This document shows positions 2,653 to 19,884 of a stretch of 64,000 nucleotides of DNA, piece by piece (position 1 is the stretch's first letter; the number at the start of each line of letters is the position of its first letter). The DNA comes from Escherichia coli. GTDB lineage: Bacteria; Pseudomonadota; Gammaproteobacteria; Enterobacterales; Enterobacteriaceae. The notes under the pieces are model-generated. The model was not told the DNA's origin, made no database searches, and was given only the letters and a program-made list of their open reading frames with translations. The position numbers and the translations under genes were made by a program. The stretch lies in NCBI RefSeq assembly GCF_013122565.1, contig NZ_CP053258.1. One strand, given 5' to 3'.

Positions 2653-3588
2653 ATGGCTAATCCGCTATATCAGAAACATATCATTTCCATAAACGACCTT
2701 AGTCGCGATGACCTTAATCTGGTGCTGGCGACAGCGGCGAAACTGAAAGCAAACCCGCAACCAGAGCTGTTGAAGCACAAAGTCATTGCCAGCTGTTTCT
2801 TCGAAGCCTCGACCCGTACCCGCCTCTCTTTCGAAACTTCCATGCACCGCCTGGGTGCCAGCGTGGTGGGCTTCTCCGACAGCGCCAATACATCACTGGG
2901 TAAAAAGGGCGAAACGCTGGCCGATACCATTTCGGTTATCAGCACTTACGTCGATGCGATAGTGATGCGTCATCCGCAGGAAGGTGCGGCGCGCCTGGCT
3001 ACCGAGTTTTCCGGCAATGTACCGGTACTGAATGCCGGTGATGGCTCCAACCAACATCCGACGCAAACCTTGCTGGACTTATTCACTATTCAGGAAACCC
3101 AAGGGCGTCTGGACAATCTCCACGTCGCAATGGTTGGTGACCTGAAATATGGCCGCACCGTTCACTCCCTGACTCAGGCGTTAGCGAAGTTCGACGGCAA
3201 CCGTTTTTACTTCATCGCGCCGGACGCGCTGGCAATGCCGCAATACATTCTGGATATGCTTGATGAAAAAGGGATCGCCTGGAGTCTGCACAGCTCTATT
3301 GAAGAAGTGATGGCGGAAGTAGACATCCTGTATATGACCCGCGTGCAAAAAGAGCGCCTGGACCCATCCGAATACGCCAACGTGAAAGCGCAGTTTGTTC
3401 TTCGCGCCAGCGATCTCCACAACGCCAAAGCCAATATGAAAGTGCTGCATCCGCTGCCGCGTGTTGATGAGATTGCGACGGATGTTGATAAAACGCCACA
3501 CGCCTGGTACTTCCAGCAGGCAGGCAACGGGATTTTCGCTCGCCAGGCGTTACTGGCACTGGTTCTGAATCGCGATCTGGTACTGTAA
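2653..3588 (+). CDS. pyrB: Aspartate carbamoyltransferase catalytic subunit
   Basis: 311 aa; ATCase motifs STRTR and HPLP; followed by pyrI. Confidence 0.97.
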
Positions 3589-4134: not shown

Positions 4135-4521
4135 ATGAGCAAAACTATCGCGACGGAAAATGCACCGGCAGCTATCGGTCCTTACGTACAGGGCGTTGAT
4201 CTGGGCAATATGATCATCACCTCCGGTCAGATCCCGGTAAATCCGAAAACGGGCGAAGTACCGGCAGACGTCGCTGCACAGGCACGTCAGTCGCTGGATA
4301 ACGTAAAAGCGATCGTCGAAGCCGCTGGCCTGAAAGTGGGCGACATCGTTAAAACTACCGTGTTTGTAAAAGATCTGAACGACTTCGCAACCGTAAACGC
4401 CACTTACGAAGCCTTCTTCACCGAACACAACGCCACCTTCCCGGCACGTTCTTGCGTTGAAGTAGCCCGTCTGCCGAAAGACGTGAAGATTGAGATCGAA
4501 GCGATCGCTGTTCGTCGCTAA
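4135..4521 (+). CDS. ridA: Enamine/imine deaminase RidA (YjgF)
   Basis: 128 aa from ATG at 4135 (MSKTIATENAPAAIGPYVQG...); ORF-track start at 4063 is an upstream extension. Confidence 0.93.
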   Translation: MSKTIATENAPAAIGPYVQGVDLGNMIITSGQIPVNPKTGEVPADVAAQARQSLDNVKAIVEAAGLKVGDIVKTTVFVKDLNDFATVNATYEAFFTEHNATFPARSCVEVARLPKDVKIEIEAIAVRR

Positions 4522-12387: not shown

Positions 12388-14526
12388 ATGACACCGCATG
12401 TGATGAAACGAGACGGCTGCAAAGTGCCGTTTAAATCAGAGCGCATCAAAGAAGCAATTCTGCGTGCAGCTAAAGCAGCGGAAGTCGATGATGCCGATTA
12501 TTGCGCCACTGTTGCCGCGGTTGTCAGCGAGCAGATGCATGGCCGCAACCAGGTGGATATCAACGAGATCCAGACCGCAGTTGAAAACCAGCTGATGTCG
12601 GGTCCATACAAACAACTGGCTCGTGCTTACATCGAGTACCGTCACGATCGCGACATTGAACGTGAAAAACGCGGTCGCCTGAACCAGGAGATCCGTGGTC
12701 TGGTCGAGCAGACCAACGCCTCGTTACTCAACGAAAACGCCAACAAAGACAGCAAGGTGATTCCAACCCAGCGCGACCTGCTGGCCGGGATCGTGGCTAA
12801 ACACTATGCACGTCAGCACCTGCTGCCGCGTGACGTGGTGCAGGCACATGAGCGTGGCGATATTCACTATCACGATCTCGATTACTCGCCGTTCTTCCCG
12901 ATGTTCAACTGCATGTTGATCGACCTGAAAGGCATGCTGACCCAGGGCTTTAAAATGGGGAACGCCGAGATTGAACCGCCGAAGTCGATCTCTACGGCAA
13001 CCGCGGTAACTGCGCAGATTATTGCTCAGGTTGCCAGCCATATTTATGGCGGCACCACCATTAACCGTATCGATGAAGTGCTGGCACCGTTTGTCACCGC
13101 CAGCTACAACAAACATCGCAAGACCGCAGAAGAGTGGAACATCCCGGACGCCGAAGGCTACGCTAACTCTCGTACCATTAAAGAGTGCTACGATGCCTTC
13201 CAGTCGCTGGAGTACGAAGTAAACACTCTGCACACCGCCAACGGTCAGACGCCGTTTGTAACCTTTGGTTTTGGTCTGGGCACCAGCTGGGAGTCGCGCC
13301 TGATTCAGGAATCTATCCTGCGTAACCGTATCGCAGGCCTCGGTAAAAACCGTAAAACTGCGGTGTTTCCGAAACTGGTGTTTGCGATTCGCGATGGCCT
13401 GAACCATAAAAAAGGCGATCCGAACTACGACATCAAACAGCTGGCGCTGGAGTGCGCAAGCAAGCGCATGTATCCGGATATCCTGAACTACGATCAGGTA
13501 GTGAAAGTCACCGGTTCGTTTAAAACTCCGATGGGCTGCCGCAGCTTCCTCGGCGTGTGGGAAAATGAAAACGGCGAGCAGATCCACGATGGTCGTAACA
13601 ACCTCGGCGTGATCAGCCTGAACCTGCCGCGTATTGCTCTGGAAGCAAAAGGCGATGAAGCCACCTTCTGGAAGCTGCTGGATGAACGTCTGGTGCTGGC
13701 ACGTAAGGCGCTGATGACCCGTATCGCTCGTCTCGAAGGCGTGAAAGCGCGCGTGGCCCCGATCCTCTATATGGAAGGTGCTTGTGGCGTGCGTCTGAAT
13801 GCTGACGATGATGTTTCTGAAATCTTCAAAAACGGTCGTGCGTCTATTTCGCTGGGTTACATCGGCATCCACGAAACCATTAACGCGCTGTTCGGCGGCG
13901 AGCATGTTTACGACAACGAGCAGCTTCGCGCGAAAGGTATCGCCATTGTTGAACGTCTGCGTCAGGCAGTGGATCAGTGGAAAGAAGAAACGGGTTATGG
14001 TTTCAGTCTCTACAGCACGCCGAGTGAAAACCTGTGCGACCGCTTCTGCCGTCTCGATACTGCTGAGTTTGGCGTGGTGCCGGGCGTGACCGATAAAGGT
14101 TACTACACCAACAGTTTCCACCTCGATGTGGAGAAGAAGGTGAACCCGTACGACAAGATCGACTTTGAAGCGCCTTACCCGCCGCTGGCGAACGGTGGTT
14201 TCATTTGCTACGGCGAGTATCCAAACATTCAGCACAACCTGAAGGCGCTGGAAGATGTCTGGGATTACAGCTATCAGCATGTACCGTATTACGGCACCAA
14301 TACGCCGATCGATGAGTGCTACGAGTGTGGCTTTACCGGTGAGTTCGAGTGCACCAGCAAAGGCTTCACTTGCCCGAAATGTGGTAACCATGACGCCTCC
14401 CGTGTGTCGGTAACTCGCCGCGTGTGCGGATATTTAGGTAGCCCGGATGCACGTCCGTTTAACGCTGGTAAGCAGGAAGAAGTTAAGCGCCGCGTTAAAC
14501 ATTTGGGGAATGGGCAGATAGGTTAA
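12388..14526 (+). CDS. nrdD: Anaerobic ribonucleoside-triphosphate reductase (class III)
   Basis: 712 aa; N-terminal ATP-cone, C-terminal glycyl-radical region and CxxC zinc ribbon (CTSKGFTCPKCG). Confidence 0.97.
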   Translation: MTPHVMKRDGCKVPFKSERIKEAILRAAKAAEVDDADYCATVAAVVSEQMHGRNQVDINEIQTAVENQLMSGPYKQLARAYIEYRHDRDIEREKRGRLNQEIRGLVEQTNASLLNENANKDSKVIPTQRDLLAGIVAKHYARQHLLPRDVVQAHERGDIHYHDLDYSPFFPMFNCMLIDLKGMLTQGFKMGNAEIEPPKSISTATAVTAQIIAQVASHIYGGTTINRIDEVLAPFVTASYNKHRKTAEEWNIPDAEGYANSRTIKECYDAFQSLEYEVNTLHTANGQTPFVTFGFGLGTSWESRLIQESILRNRIAGLGKNRKTAVFPKLVFAIRDGLNHKKGDPNYDIKQLALECASKRMYPDILNYDQVVKVTGSFKTPMGCRSFLGVWENENGEQIHDGRNNLGVISLNLPRIALEAKGDEATFWKLLDERLVLARKALMTRIARLEGVKARVAPILYMEGACGVRLNADDDVSEIFKNGRASISLGYIGIHETINALFGGEHVYDNEQLRAKGIAIVERLRQAVDQWKEETGYGFSLYSTPSENLCDRFCRLDTAEFGVVPGVTDKGYYTNSFHLDVEKKVNPYDKIDFEAPYPPLANGGFICYGEYPNIQHNLKALEDVWDYSYQHVPYYGTNTPIDECYECGFTGEFECTSKGFTCPKCGNHDASRVSVTRRVCGYLGSPDARPFNAGKQEEVKRRVKHLGNGQIG

Positions 14527-14547
14527 TCTTCACTCTGCGCTAAGCAA

Positions 14548-14680
<133 letters not shown>

Positions 14681-14683
14681 ATA

Positions 14684-15148
14684 ATGAATTATCATCAGTA
14701 CTATCCTGTCGACATCGTCAACGGCCCCGGCACTCGCTGCACCCTGTTTGTCTCCGGGTGTGTTCATGAATGCCCCGGTTGCTATAACAAAAGCACATGG
14801 CGGGTAAATTCTGGTCAGCCATTTACCAAAGCAATGGAAGACCAGATCATTAACGATCTGAATGACACTCGTATCAAACGCCAGGGTATTTCCCTCTCCG
14901 GCGGCGATCCGCTGCATCCGCAAAACGTGCCGGATATTCTGAAACTGGTACAACGCATCCGCGCCGAGTGTCCGGGTAAAGACATCTGGGTGTGGACAGG
15001 CTATAAACTCGACGAACTCAACGCTGCGCAAATGCAGGTTGTTGATTTGATTAACGTGCTGGTCGACGGCAAATTTGTGCAGGATTTAAAAGACCCTTCC
15101 CTGATCTGGCGCGGCAGCAGCAATCAGGTGGTGCATCATTTGCGTTAA
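14684..15148 (+). CDS. nrdG: Anaerobic ribonucleotide reductase activating enzyme (radical SAM)
   Basis: 154 aa; radical-SAM cysteine motif CxxxCxxC (CVHECPGC). Confidence 0.95.
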   Translation: MNYHQYYPVDIVNGPGTRCTLFVSGCVHECPGCYNKSTWRVNSGQPFTKAMEDQIINDLNDTRIKRQGISLSGGDPLHPQNVPDILKLVQRIRAECPGKDIWVWTGYKLDELNAAQMQVVDLINVLVDGKFVQDLKDPSLIWRGSSNQVVHHLR

Positions 15149-15439
15149 TCACTCATCCAGTCGTTTAGTCGCGTCTTCATAAACGGCTGAGTTCTCTCTC
15201 TTACCAATAGATATCACCAACACGAGCAACTCTTTATCGTTAACCTGATAAACCAGGCGATATCCCAGTGTGCGCAGCTTAATTTTGTAGCAGTCCGGTA
15301 AATCCCGCAGTTTAGCCGATGGATTGCGCGGCCTTTTTAGCAAATCCTCAAGCTTTTTTTTAAATTGTTCCCGGACTGTCACGCCCAGTTTTTGCCACTC
15401 TTTCAGCGCCCGCGGATCAAAAGCCAGCTCATAGTTCAT
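15149..15439 (-). CDS. RelE/ParE-superfamily type II toxin (RelE-like)
   Basis: 96 aa from ATG at 15439 (MNYELAFDPRALKEWQKLG...YKIKLR..GYRLVYQV...LVLVISIGKRE), resembling RelE; overlaps upstream antitoxin gene by 11 nt; ORF-track start at 15517 is a non-ATG extension. Confidence 0.8.
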   Translation of the reverse strand: MNYELAFDPRALKEWQKLGVTVREQFKKKLEDLLKRPRNPSAKLRDLPDCYKIKLRTLGYRLVYQVNDKELLVLVISIGKRENSAVYEDATKRLDE

Positions 15440-15671
15440 CCAGTCGGACCTTAATGGCCTCTTGTGGGTTGGCCAGTCGTTCCCTGACAGTGCGTAACAA
15501 GGCTTCTTCACTATCACTGACAGTGAGCGTTTTTACCGGCATTCGTCCATTTTCCGCAACGTACTGAAACAGCAGCCGCACTGCTTCAGTAGGCGTGATA
15601 TTTAATTTTTCCAGCACCGCATAAGCCTCATTTTTCAGTTTGTCATCCAGGCGGACGTTAAGTGTGGCCAT
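15429..15671 (-). CDS. RelB/DinJ-family antitoxin
   Basis: 80 aa MATLNVRLDDKLKNEAYAVLEKLNITPTEAVRLL..., resembling RelB; GGAGG RBS upstream; immediately 5' of and overlapping the toxin gene. Confidence 0.8.
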   Translation of the reverse strand: MATLNVRLDDKLKNEAYAVLEKLNITPTEAVRLLFQYVAENGRMPVKTLTVSDSEEALLRTVRERLANPQEAIKVRLDEL

Positions 15672-15695
15672 TATGCCTCCGGTAATTATGAAAAG

Positions 15696-15730
15696 TGTAA
15701 TGCATTATAGCATTACATATGCATTACATT
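15696..15730 (-). promoter_or_regulatory. Putative autoregulatory operator of the RelBE-like module
   Basis: Perfect palindrome TAATGCATTA (15698-15707) plus repeats of GCATTACA at 15710 and 15721, 25-60 bp upstream of antitoxin ATG. Confidence 0.5.
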
Positions 15731-15819
15731 CATTTCTGGAAAACGCCTCGCAAAAATGGCGTCGACACGCAGAAATATGCCGTAGTGAAGAGAGATTTGG
15801 CGGTGATTTTACGAGGGGT

Positions 15820-15854
15820 AAGAAAGCGTTGGGCGGTAACGTTTCACCGCCCAA
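15820..15854 (-). terminator. Putative cybC terminator
   Basis: TTGGGCGG...CCGCCCAA stem (15829-15854) just downstream of cybC stop, T-rich tail on reverse strand. Confidence 0.4.
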
Positions 15855-15861
15855 TAAGGAA

Positions 15862-16251
<390 letters not shown>

Positions 16252-16430
16252 TCACTTCCTTTTTTATTTACACTTCATCCTTCACACTGCCTCATCGACG
16301 GCTACGCTCATTCGACCGGGTCACGTACTACGAGTACGCTCCCCGGCTCTCATTCACTTTCCGTCTCGATGCAGCGCGAATGATTTTGTGTAATTTTTTA
16401 GTTTATGGCGCGGCAGGTCGCGCCAGTTTT

Positions 16431-18428: not shown

Positions 18429-18454
18429 TTTTCGTTGTTGATGTGAGTATGGTT

Positions 18455-18505
18455 TGCCGGATGCGGCGTAAACGCCTTATCCGGCAATGCTTTATCAGGC
18501 TGAAG
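18455..18505. repeat. REP element
   Basis: GCCGGATGCGGCGTAAACGCCTTATCCGGC unit. Confidence 0.8.
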
Positions 18506-18510
18506 CCGAA

Positions 18511-19884
18511 TTACTGCGCAGCTTCCGCCTTCTTCGCCAGACCATCCAGCAGTTTCTGATGGATCCCACCAAAACCGCCGTTGCTCATCACCAGAATATG
18601 GTCGCCAGGCTGAGCGGTTTTCACCACCATATCTGCCAGCGTATCCACATCGCCACTCCAGTGTGCAGGCTGAACGCAGGCTTCTGCCACTTCTGCCACC
18701 TGCCACGGAATATGCGCCGGTTGCAGCAGGAAGACTTCATCGGCACGACCTAATGAAGGTGCCAAATCGTCTTTGCAGATCCCCATTTTCATGGTATTCG
18801 AGCGCGGTTCCAGCACAGCAATAATGCGCGCCGTACCACCAACTTTGCCACGCAGCGCCGCAAGCGTTGCCAGAATCGCCGTCGGGTGATGGGCAAAATC
18901 GTCATATACCGTGACGCCATTGGCTTCACCACGCAGTTCCAGACGGCGACGAGCGTTAATAAACGAACCCAGCGCGTTAGCGGCATCTGCCGGCGCTACA
19001 CCAACATGGCGAGCCGCCGCAATCGCCATCAGGCCATTGTGCATATTATGTTCGCCTACCAGCGACCATTTCACTTCGCCCACTTTTTCGCCATCCAGCA
19101 AGACTTCCCATTCAGAAGCGTCAGTGGTCAGCTTTTTCGCCTGCCAGTGACCTTGCTCGCCCACCAGCTCCTGCTCGCTCCAGCAGCCCATCGCCATGGT
19201 CTGTTTCAGGTTGATGTCGTTTTCCGGCCAGATAATACGGCCCTGCCCCGGAACGATACGCACCAGATGGTGGAACTGTTTCTGGATCGCTTTCAGGTCG
19301 TCAAAGATATCGGCGTGATCGAACTCAAGGTTGTTGAGGATCAGCGTACGCGGGCAGTAATGAACAAATTTAGAACGTTTGTCGAAGAAGGCGCAGTCAT
19401 ACTCATCCGCTTCGATAACAAAGAAGTCGCTTTCGCCCAGACGCGCCGAAACCTCAAAGTTCCCCGGCACACCGCCGATCACAAATCCCGGTTTGTAACC
19501 GCACTGTTCCAGAATCCAGGTCGCCATTCCCGCCGTGGTGGTTTTGCCGTGTGTACCAGCAACGGCCAGCACCCAGCGGTCGCGCAGCACAAAATCGTGC
19601 AGCCACTGTGGACCTGACATATAAGGGATGTTTTTTTCCAGTACCGCTTCCACACACGGATTTCCACGGGTCATGGCGTTGCCAATAATCACCAGATCCG
19701 GCTGCGGCTCGAGCTGGCTGGCATCGTAACCCTGAATCAGCTCAATGCCTTGCTTCTCAAGTAAGGTGCTCATCGGCGGATACACATTGGCGTCCGAACC
19801 CGTTACTTCATGGCCTAACTGGCGCGCCAGCATCGCCAGACCGCCCATAAACGTGCCACAAATTCCTAAAATATGAATGCGCAT
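18511..19884 (-). CDS. mpl: UDP-N-acetylmuramate:L-alanyl-gamma-D-glutamyl-meso-DAP ligase
   Basis: 457 aa Mur ligase (MRIHILGICGTFMGGLA...; GTHGKTTT P-loop). Confidence 0.95.
   Translation of the reverse strand: MRIHILGICGTFMGGLAMLARQLGHEVTGSDANVYPPMSTLLEKQGIELIQGYDASQLEPQPDLVIIGNAMTRGNPCVEAVLEKNIPYMSGPQWLHDFVLRDRWVLAVAGTHGKTTTAGMATWILEQCGYKPGFVIGGVPGNFEVSARLGESDFFVIEADEYDCAFFDKRSKFVHYCPRTLILNNLEFDHADIFDDLKAIQKQFHHLVRIVPGQGRIIWPENDINLKQTMAMGCWSEQELVGEQGHWQAKKLTTDASEWEVLLDGEKVGEVKWSLVGEHNMHNGLMAIAAARHVGVAPADAANALGSFINARRRLELRGEANGVTVYDDFAHHPTAILATLAALRGKVGGTARIIAVLEPRSNTMKMGICKDDLAPSLGRADEVFLLQPAHIPWQVAEVAEACVQPAHWSGDVDTLADMVVKTAQPGDHILVMSNGGFGGIHQKLLDGLAKKAEAAQ

Follow-up and report, generated by a model that had tools for sequence, protein, structure and literature searches.

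A probable relBE toxin-antitoxin operon in the nrdG flank of Escherichia coli and its apparent stepwise loss in Escherichia

The nrdG-linked gene pair

Two small minus-strand genes lie between cybC and nrdG in a stretch of Escherichia coli DNA of 64,000 nucleotides (nt), here termed the window (contig NZ_CP053258.1 of assembly GCF_013122565.1). They very probably represent an intact chromosomal type II RelBE toxin-antitoxin operon, the Escherichia ortholog of Salmonella relBE, and an old, vertically inherited resident of this site that is decaying in Escherichia. The pair is already known: RefSeq annotates it as 'RelE family toxin' and 'RelB/DinJ family antitoxin', the Salmonella ortholog has been tested experimentally, and the module is of the ordinary RelBE kind. 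The genes and adjoining features are as follows.

15149-15439, minus strand: relE-like toxin gene, 96 amino acids (aa), beginning MNYELAFD (open reading frame and sequence)
15429-15671, minus strand: relB-like ribbon-helix-helix antitoxin gene, 80 aa, beginning MATLNVRLDD (open reading frame and sequence)
15676-15680, minus strand: Shine-Dalgarno (SD) sequence GGAGG of the antitoxin gene, 4 nt before the ATG
14684-15148, plus strand: nrdG, the convergent neighbour; its stop codon touches that of the toxin gene with zero spacing
15829-15854, minus strand: terminator hairpin of cybC in the module-bearing allele (hairpin scan)
15862-16248, minus strand: cybC, the upstream neighbour in Escherichia only (context)

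Open reading frames and sequence agree on the arrangement described in a first-pass annotation of this DNA, with the antitoxin gene upstream, the toxin gene following it, and an overlap of 11 nt (15429-15439). The toxin frame in the mechanical list of open reading frames reaches back to a GTG at 15517, but the toxin is counted from its ATG because K-12 RelE and every ortholog align from there. nrdG ends at 15148 and the toxin stop lies at 15149, so that the two stop codons are adjacent, as had been noted; likewise, the module does sit between nrdG and the cybC terminator (15854-15829). SD sequences had been proposed for both genes. That of the antitoxin is strong and is kept in all genera aligned, whereas the toxin gene is preceded by no more than a weak AAGG, about 9 nt before its start. 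Because the toxin SD is weak, translation of the toxin is probably coupled to that of the antitoxin through the 11-nt overlap.

Identity of the two proteins

The antitoxin matches the RelB equivalog model NF008412 of NCBIfam from end to end (130.1 bits, cut-off 96) and the Pfam RelB family PF04221 (E 6.5e-16). Its structural matches are RelB itself (4fxe_A, E 1.2e-20) and the ribbon-helix-helix fragment 2k29 (E 3.4e-13), and it is 47.5% identical to K-12 RelB. The toxin is 64.9% identical to K-12 RelE over 94 aa, and its four best matches in the PDB are the RelE chains 4v7k, 4fxe, 2kc8 and 4v7j, at E-values from 4.5e-35 (4V7K) to 2e-33, ungapped over residues 1-94. It also passes TIGR02385 (RelE_StbE) at 32.2 bits, against a cut-off of 27.9. 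The match is not a chance one, since both proteins reach their families at E-values of 1e-20 to 1e-35, and the RelBE assignment suggested at first reading is borne out.

Are the residues that matter still in place? In the ungapped alignment, K52, K54, R61, R81 and Y87 (E. coli RelE numbering) are all identical in the toxin, and none of the catalytic residues has been lost. From the RelE-ribosome structures 4V7J and 4V7K, we take K52, K54, R61 and R81 to have catalytic roles. Y87 of RelE is needed for catalysis (PMC3507626). In the K-12 RelB2E2 structure, a RelB helix with L58, V59, V62 and R65 mimics and displaces the C-terminal helix of RelE that carries Y87; the RelE side of the contact consists of V86, Y87, A90 and R93, with E14 (PMC3507626). 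The window antitoxin has L58, L59, V62, R65 and L66 at this motif, and the toxin retains E14, V86, Y87, A90 and R93, residues of the RelB-RelE interface and C-terminal helix.

Promoter and operator

A set of short repeats lies upstream of the antitoxin gene.

15696-15729, minus strand: predicted operator-promoter block, reading on the coding strand ATGTAATGC (15729-15721), AT, ATGTAATGC (15718-15710), TATAAT (15709-15704) and GCATTACA (15703-15696)
15698-15707, no strand assigned: perfect palindrome of 10 nt, TAATGCATTA, present in the window

On the plus strand, TGTAATGC is found at 15696 and GCATTACA at 15710 and 15721. A TG at 15712-15711, read by eye, lies one base before the TATAAT and gives an extended -10 (TGcTATAAT).

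Which of these sequences is the regulatory element? Ten antitoxin genes linked to nrdG, taken from Escherichia, Citrobacter, Enterobacter and Kosakonia, were aligned over the 130 nt that precede them, and the Salmonella upstream sequence was read separately. The 34-nt block, whose repeats are invariant, and the SD sequence are conserved across five genera and the flanks and upstream sequence are unalignable; because block and SD are kept and the sequence upstream of the block is not alignable, the comparison serves as a phylogenetic footprint. What is conserved, and predicted to be regulatory, is the set of TGTAATGC / GCATTACA repeats surrounding the -10 hexamer; the further repeats that the first-pass annotation had pointed to are both present and conserved. 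The perfect palindrome that it had also singled out is present in the window, but not conserved, as other genera have TATTGCATTA or AACTGCATTA at its position. This lineage-specific palindrome is a by-product of the TATAAT of this lineage, which adjoins GCATTA.

The K-12 operator relO, which has been footprinted, consists of four [A/T]TGT[A/C]A hexads that form two abutting 12-bp palindromes, 24 bp in length, from -10 to +17 (PMC2812701). The TGTAA core of the window repeats is also the core of the relO hexads. Three TGTAA-core repeats bracket the -10 and are kept across genera, but their number and layout are unlike those of the four-hexad relO: the two abutting palindromes of relO are downstream of the -10, whereas the window has two direct repeats 11 nt apart and an inverted copy across the -10. 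By analogy with relO, repression by RelB at the predicted operator is well supported; RelB would be expected to bind, and transcription to start, at this block.

Salmonella relBE and other relatives

The closest studied system is the Salmonella Typhimurium relBE locus STM4449-STM4450 (SL1344 4379-4380, or SL4379-4380), referred to as RelBE in PMC4669091 and as relBE2ST in PMC4366850. STM4449-4450 is tabulated as a RelBE locus (PMC4669091), and the relE and relB cloning primers and one quantitative PCR primer of that work map exactly onto the Salmonella nrdG-linked locus. STM4452, used in placing STM4449-4450, is nrdD. A retracted paper (PMC3868539) also lists STM4449-4450; it served as a pointer to the locus tag only, and the mapping was confirmed independently. 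Induction of the Salmonella relE arrests or delays growth, and co-expression of relB relieves this; relE induction also raises ciprofloxacin tolerance, and the gene is induced about five-fold in macrophages (PMC4669091). RelE2ST (SL4379-4380) is among the toxins that were functional in the assays of another study (PMC4366850).

The window pair is a positional ortholog of this locus, with the same gene order, the same 11-nt overlap and the same convergence on nrdG-nrdD. The antitoxins are 84% identical. The operator block, ATGTAATGC-N2-ATGTAATGC-TAnAnT-GCATTACA, and the SD are shared, with a -10 of TAAACT in Salmonella versus TATAAT in the window. There are also differences. The Salmonella toxin has 94 aa and ends a few nt before nrdG, whereas the Escherichia toxin is two residues longer (ending RLDE) and abuts nrdG; and the upstream neighbour is a PRD/PTS-EIIA regulator gene in Salmonella, but cybC in Escherichia. 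The E. coli locus, on which no specific paper was found in the literature, is thus now tied to the studied Salmonella STM4449-4450 module. Taken alone, one more RelBE pair carries little weight.

K-12 RelBE (relB b1564 and relE b1563) belongs to the same fold families, with proteins of 79 and 95 aa there versus 80 and 96 aa here. The toxins are 65% and the antitoxins 47.5% identical, with catalytic residues and the RelB helix-mimic motif kept. However, the K-12 locus is in the Qin prophage with hokD downstream, whereas the window pair lies in the core nrdG flank, and the gene overlap is 1 nt in K-12 relBE as opposed to 11 nt here. The K-12 pair is a paralog, and its RelE a close one. A further comparison is with toxins of the RelE/StbE family on enterobacterial plasmids, which have StbD or Phd/YefM partners. 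In about 2,000 plasmid records, short parts of the toxin gene find matches at 67-81% nucleotide identity, but these matches cover only 11-41% of the query and the toxin only; the antitoxins are of other families, and there is no common operator or context.

Distribution and decay in Escherichia

Of 5,426 complete E. coli genomes, 5,423 match the end of nrdG. Module sequence is present in 454, with the full module (match over at least 80% of its length) in 391 (7%) and part of it in 63. The best full-length allele among these genomes is 97.9% identical to that of the window, and there is none at 99% or above; the divergence sits in the spacer, not in the genes. The nearest full-length match anywhere (98.9% over 610 nt) is NZ_CP134663.1. 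This PLSDB entry is a 4.9-Mb E. coli record that is filed as a plasmid and is evidently a chromosome.

The first-pass annotation had taken K-12 to be without such a locus at this site and had proposed strain variability; both points hold. K-12-type genomes have a 44-nt spacer in place of the module.

15145-15853, no strand assigned: region unlike that of K-12-type genomes, about 709 bp long here; K-12 has about 40 bp of unrelated spacer and another terminator hairpin

The left junction falls within the last nrdG codon, as the gene ends CGT TAA in the window and CGA TGA in K-12. The E. albertii-type allele has the same cybC terminator hairpin as the window, and the K-12 hairpin differs. Because its spacer holds an unrelated terminator hairpin, the K-12 state is a replacement, not a clean excision.

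Between the intact module (the window and the 391 genomes) and the K-12 type, in which it is fully replaced, several intermediate states are found. These involve the following sites within the genes.

15354-15361, minus strand: frameshift site in the toxin gene, an A8 homopolymer at codons K27-K29
15193-15201, minus strand: second frameshift site in the toxin gene, an (AG)n tract at codons K80-R81-E82 (coordinates hand-counted from the alignment)
15153-15163, no strand assigned: TCATCCAGTCG, left copy of a direct repeat of 11 nt, with the codons for R-L-D-E at the C-terminus of the toxin
15436-15446, no strand assigned: right copy of TCATCCAGTCG, codons R-L-D-E near the antitoxin C-terminus

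E. marmotae keeps an intact antitoxin, and its toxin gene has lost one base in or next to the A8 run, which shifts the frame. In E. coli E69 a loss of 2 nt in the (AG)n tract cuts the toxin to 86 aa, without Y87 and the C-terminal helix. A 283-bp deletion between the TCATCCAGTCG copies removes the toxin in five of six sampled rows of the 63 partial-module genomes. It leaves an orphan antitoxin of 79 aa, and the new stop codon again abuts nrdG. The repeat is statistically unremarkable (97 of 2,000 segment shuffles hold some repeated 11-mer); it matters because it is the observed deletion junction, not because it is rare. The deletion is found on two spacer haplotypes, an O8:H28-type spacer in AST85 and the window-type spacer in O145, N32 and PRO_A, and it either recurred or was moved by recombination.

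Compared with the window, four orphan antitoxin genes carry six substitutions in total, five of them synonymous and one changing the protein. The orphan allele of E. coli O145 RM11626 has a C-to-T change at the equivalent of 15703, which converts the inverted operator arm TGTAATGC to TGTAATGT, and its antitoxin has A72T. With the toxin gone, these two changes may mark the onset of decay.

In the E. albertii type strain and in E. coli SCPM-O-B-7615, one base missing in or next to the same A8 run shifts the toxin frame, and deletion has removed most of the antitoxin gene and promoter. SCPM-O-B-7615 (NZ_CP144926.1) and E. albertii NBRC 107761 have identical profiles of protein identity to the window across nrdG, the toxin fragments, the antitoxin remnant and cybC. 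Because the profiles are identical, SCPM-O-B-7615 carries an E. albertii-type segment here, either through recombination or as a misassigned strain.

As judged from these alleles, decay in Escherichia appears to be stepwise: the toxin goes first, the antitoxin later, and the short K-12 spacer comes last. Such an order is to be expected if loss of the antitoxin first is lethal. One fixed chromosomal site that displays every stage of toxin-antitoxin decay offers a handy natural series for the study of module loss.

Proposed mode of action

How might the module work? The K-12 RelBE paradigm and the Salmonella experiments suggest mRNA cleavage, neutralisation, repression and antitoxin lability. 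A single extended -10 promoter (TGcTATAAT) would drive relB and then relE, with translation coupled via the 11-nt overlap. RelB dimers, through their N-terminal ribbon-helix-helix, would bind the TGTAA-core repeats bracketing the -10 and turn the operon off, probably more tightly with RelE bound. The C-terminal RelB helix (L58, L59, V62, R65) would wrap RelE and displace the Y87-bearing helix, leaving the toxin inactive. When the labile antitoxin is depleted, free RelE would enter the ribosomal A site and cleave mRNA, and growth would stop. In the history of the site, the toxin would have been lost first and the antitoxin next, followed by full replacement by the K-12 spacer.

Several points weigh against this scheme. 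The toxin is only 67% identical to that of Salmonella (63/94), and the experiments concern the Salmonella ortholog. A scan of 14500-16400 for the sigma-70 consensus found no promoter, and the -35 is poor; the extended -10 promoter is thus a presumptive one. Since the operator layout differs from that of K-12 relO, conditional cooperativity, which is only assumed, may not transfer. The toxin is often inactivated in relatives, which may mean that selection for an active toxin is weak in Escherichia. The window copy could be silent or attenuated despite its intact frames.

Does the antitoxin have a role of its own, beyond its partner toxin? It might act in anti-addiction against RelE paralogs of prophages or plasmids, or as a stand-alone repressor. 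Across genera, mean identity is 84% for the antitoxin versus 73% for the toxin, and mean nonsynonymous divergence (dN) is 0.10 versus 0.20. The N-terminal DNA-binding domain of the antitoxin, at a dN of 0.07, is close to nrdG (0.065), and the toxin evolves three times faster than this domain. In E. marmotae and in the sampled partial-module E. coli, the antitoxin stays intact together with its promoter and operator after the toxin is lost. Slow N-terminal evolution and orphan retention leave room for such a role, and the occurrence of the same 283-bp deletion on two haplotypes and the mostly synonymous substitutions in the orphans fit it as well. Nonetheless, we consider it an unlikely addition, because the ordinary order-of-loss argument covers most of the evidence: if the toxin must die before the antitoxin, orphan antitoxins are the expected intermediate.

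A rather unlikely alternative is that the frames are intact and the module of this strain is a dead or attenuated relic, through a weakened toxin or a silent promoter. The recurrent toxin inactivation in close relatives (frameshifts at the A8 run and at the (AG)n tract, and on two haplotypes the 283-bp deletion) points this way, as does a toxin that evolves twice as fast as the antitoxin. However, all catalytic and interface residues are intact, the window toxin is one residue away from the other full-length E. coli alleles, and the operator, -10 and SD match the cross-genus consensus. The ratio of dN to synonymous divergence (dS) of the toxin is far below 1 between genera. An operon with a working toxin remains the preferred interpretation.

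Insertion or loss?

The first-pass annotation had left open whether the pair was inserted in some strains or lost from K-12. A synteny scan of one genome per species finds relB-relE convergent on nrdG, with a gap of 0-10 nt, in Citrobacter amalonaticus, four Enterobacter genomes, three Kosakonia species and one metagenome-assembled genome from soil. A search with the antitoxin adds Salmonella enterica (more than 2,000 assembly blocks), Cronobacter, Trabulsiella, Kluyvera and Klebsiella huaxiensis. The Salmonella context was confirmed directly, with the pair convergent on nrdG-nrdD. In the other genera the upstream neighbour is a PRD/PTS-EIIA regulator gene, where Escherichia has cybC. dS is saturated alike for antitoxin, toxin and nrdG, and dN/dS is far below 1 between genera, which fits long vertical co-residence with nrdG. 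E. albertii and E. marmotae have degraded copies of the module at this very position.

In the plasmid and phage collections, no full-length module was found on any true plasmid or phage record. A single match in the phage set was set aside, as it is a 501-kb Salmonella contig with chromosomal context and not a mobile copy. Window open reading frames and repeat analysis show no integrase, transposase or target-site duplication around the module.

The same synteny across genera, the saturated dS and the lack of mobile copies favour a module that would be ancestral in the nrdG 3' flank of Enterobacteriaceae, with K-12 representing a loss and the window not an insertion. Of the two possibilities first offered, loss is thus upheld, and the synteny comparison, which places the pair beside nrdG in other genera, tells against insertion. 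Could the module nevertheless have entered the nrdG-cybC spacer of some E. coli lineages recently by horizontal transfer, the K-12 state being ancestral? In favour of this, the module is present in only 7-8% of complete E. coli genomes, and a simple deletion would not have produced the K-12 spacer, which holds about 40 nt of unrelated sequence and a terminator hairpin of its own. However, the convergence on nrdG in at least five genera, with a saturated dS that matches nrdG, makes a recent arrival quite improbable. Added to this are the degraded copies in E. albertii and E. marmotae, which have the same junctions and the same cybC terminator, the left junction inside the last nrdG codon in all carriers, and the missing signs of mobility given above: no integrase, transposase or target-site duplication, and no full-length match on true plasmids or phages.

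Toxin family names

Pfam places the toxin in PF05016 'ParE_toxin' (E 1.6e-14) and also in PF15781 'ParE-like_toxin', names that would suggest a gyrase poison of the ParE type instead of an mRNA endonuclease. PF05016, as we understand it, takes in the entire RelE/ParE superfamily. The ParE idea has almost nothing left to recommend it. All four significant matches in the PDB search (E 4.5e-35 to 2.1e-33) come from RelE of E. coli, and below E 0.01 there is no chain under the name ParE; the toxin also shares 65% of its residues with RelE, the catalytic ones among them, and it is paired with RelB, not with ParD. The only other PDB matches below 0.01 are 2khe, an unnamed 'toxin-like protein' (E 1.2e-06), and an engineered repeat protein. 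On the RelB/ParD model the antitoxin scores 30.2 bits against a cut-off of 60, as compared with 130 bits on the RelB model. Because no ParE chain is significant, the Pfam name should not be taken to mean a gyrase poison.

Membership in an anti-phage defence system was also considered and rejected. The only PADLOC match is a marginal one (E 0.0023, 14.8 bits) between the toxin and a model of a CARF-RelE fusion, in the RelE domain of that model; the antitoxin has none.

Neighbouring features

No terminator is found between the convergent nrdG and toxin genes, in the window or in the other genera. The only terminator-like hairpin on the nrdG strand downstream of nrdG (15306-15338, plus strand) is inside the toxin gene and is weak, with three of nine pairs G-C. 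Because there is no terminator in the 0-10 nt gap, the nrdG and toxin transcripts probably overlap as antisense RNAs. As this convergence without a terminator occurs in every genus, anaerobic induction of nrdDG could modulate the module via antisense read-through. In Enterobacter sp. Bisph1 (3001-3354), the toxin open reading frame has lost its stop codon and continues for 117 aa into nrdG antisense.

No Rfam RNA family was found in 15149-15860. Elsewhere in the window, palindromic repeats of the REP/BIME type are present at 14513-14664, in the nrdD-nrdG spacer, and at 18451-18529; on both strands they match Rfam naRNA4, but below the threshold.

Two further observations concern cybC. One arm of its terminator stem, TTGGGCGGT/ACCGCCCAA, is near-duplicated as TTTGGCGGTGA at 15795-15806, 33 nt distant (region 15795-15855). 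The TTTGGCGGTGA copy could pair with the other terminator arm (12 nt, 92% complementary), and it may give the 3' end a second possible structure or be what is left of a duplication. In addition, cybC encodes 121 aa in the K-12-type genome (3094-3459 of that locus) versus 128 aa in the window and other strains, the K-12 form being without the first seven residues of the signal-peptide region.

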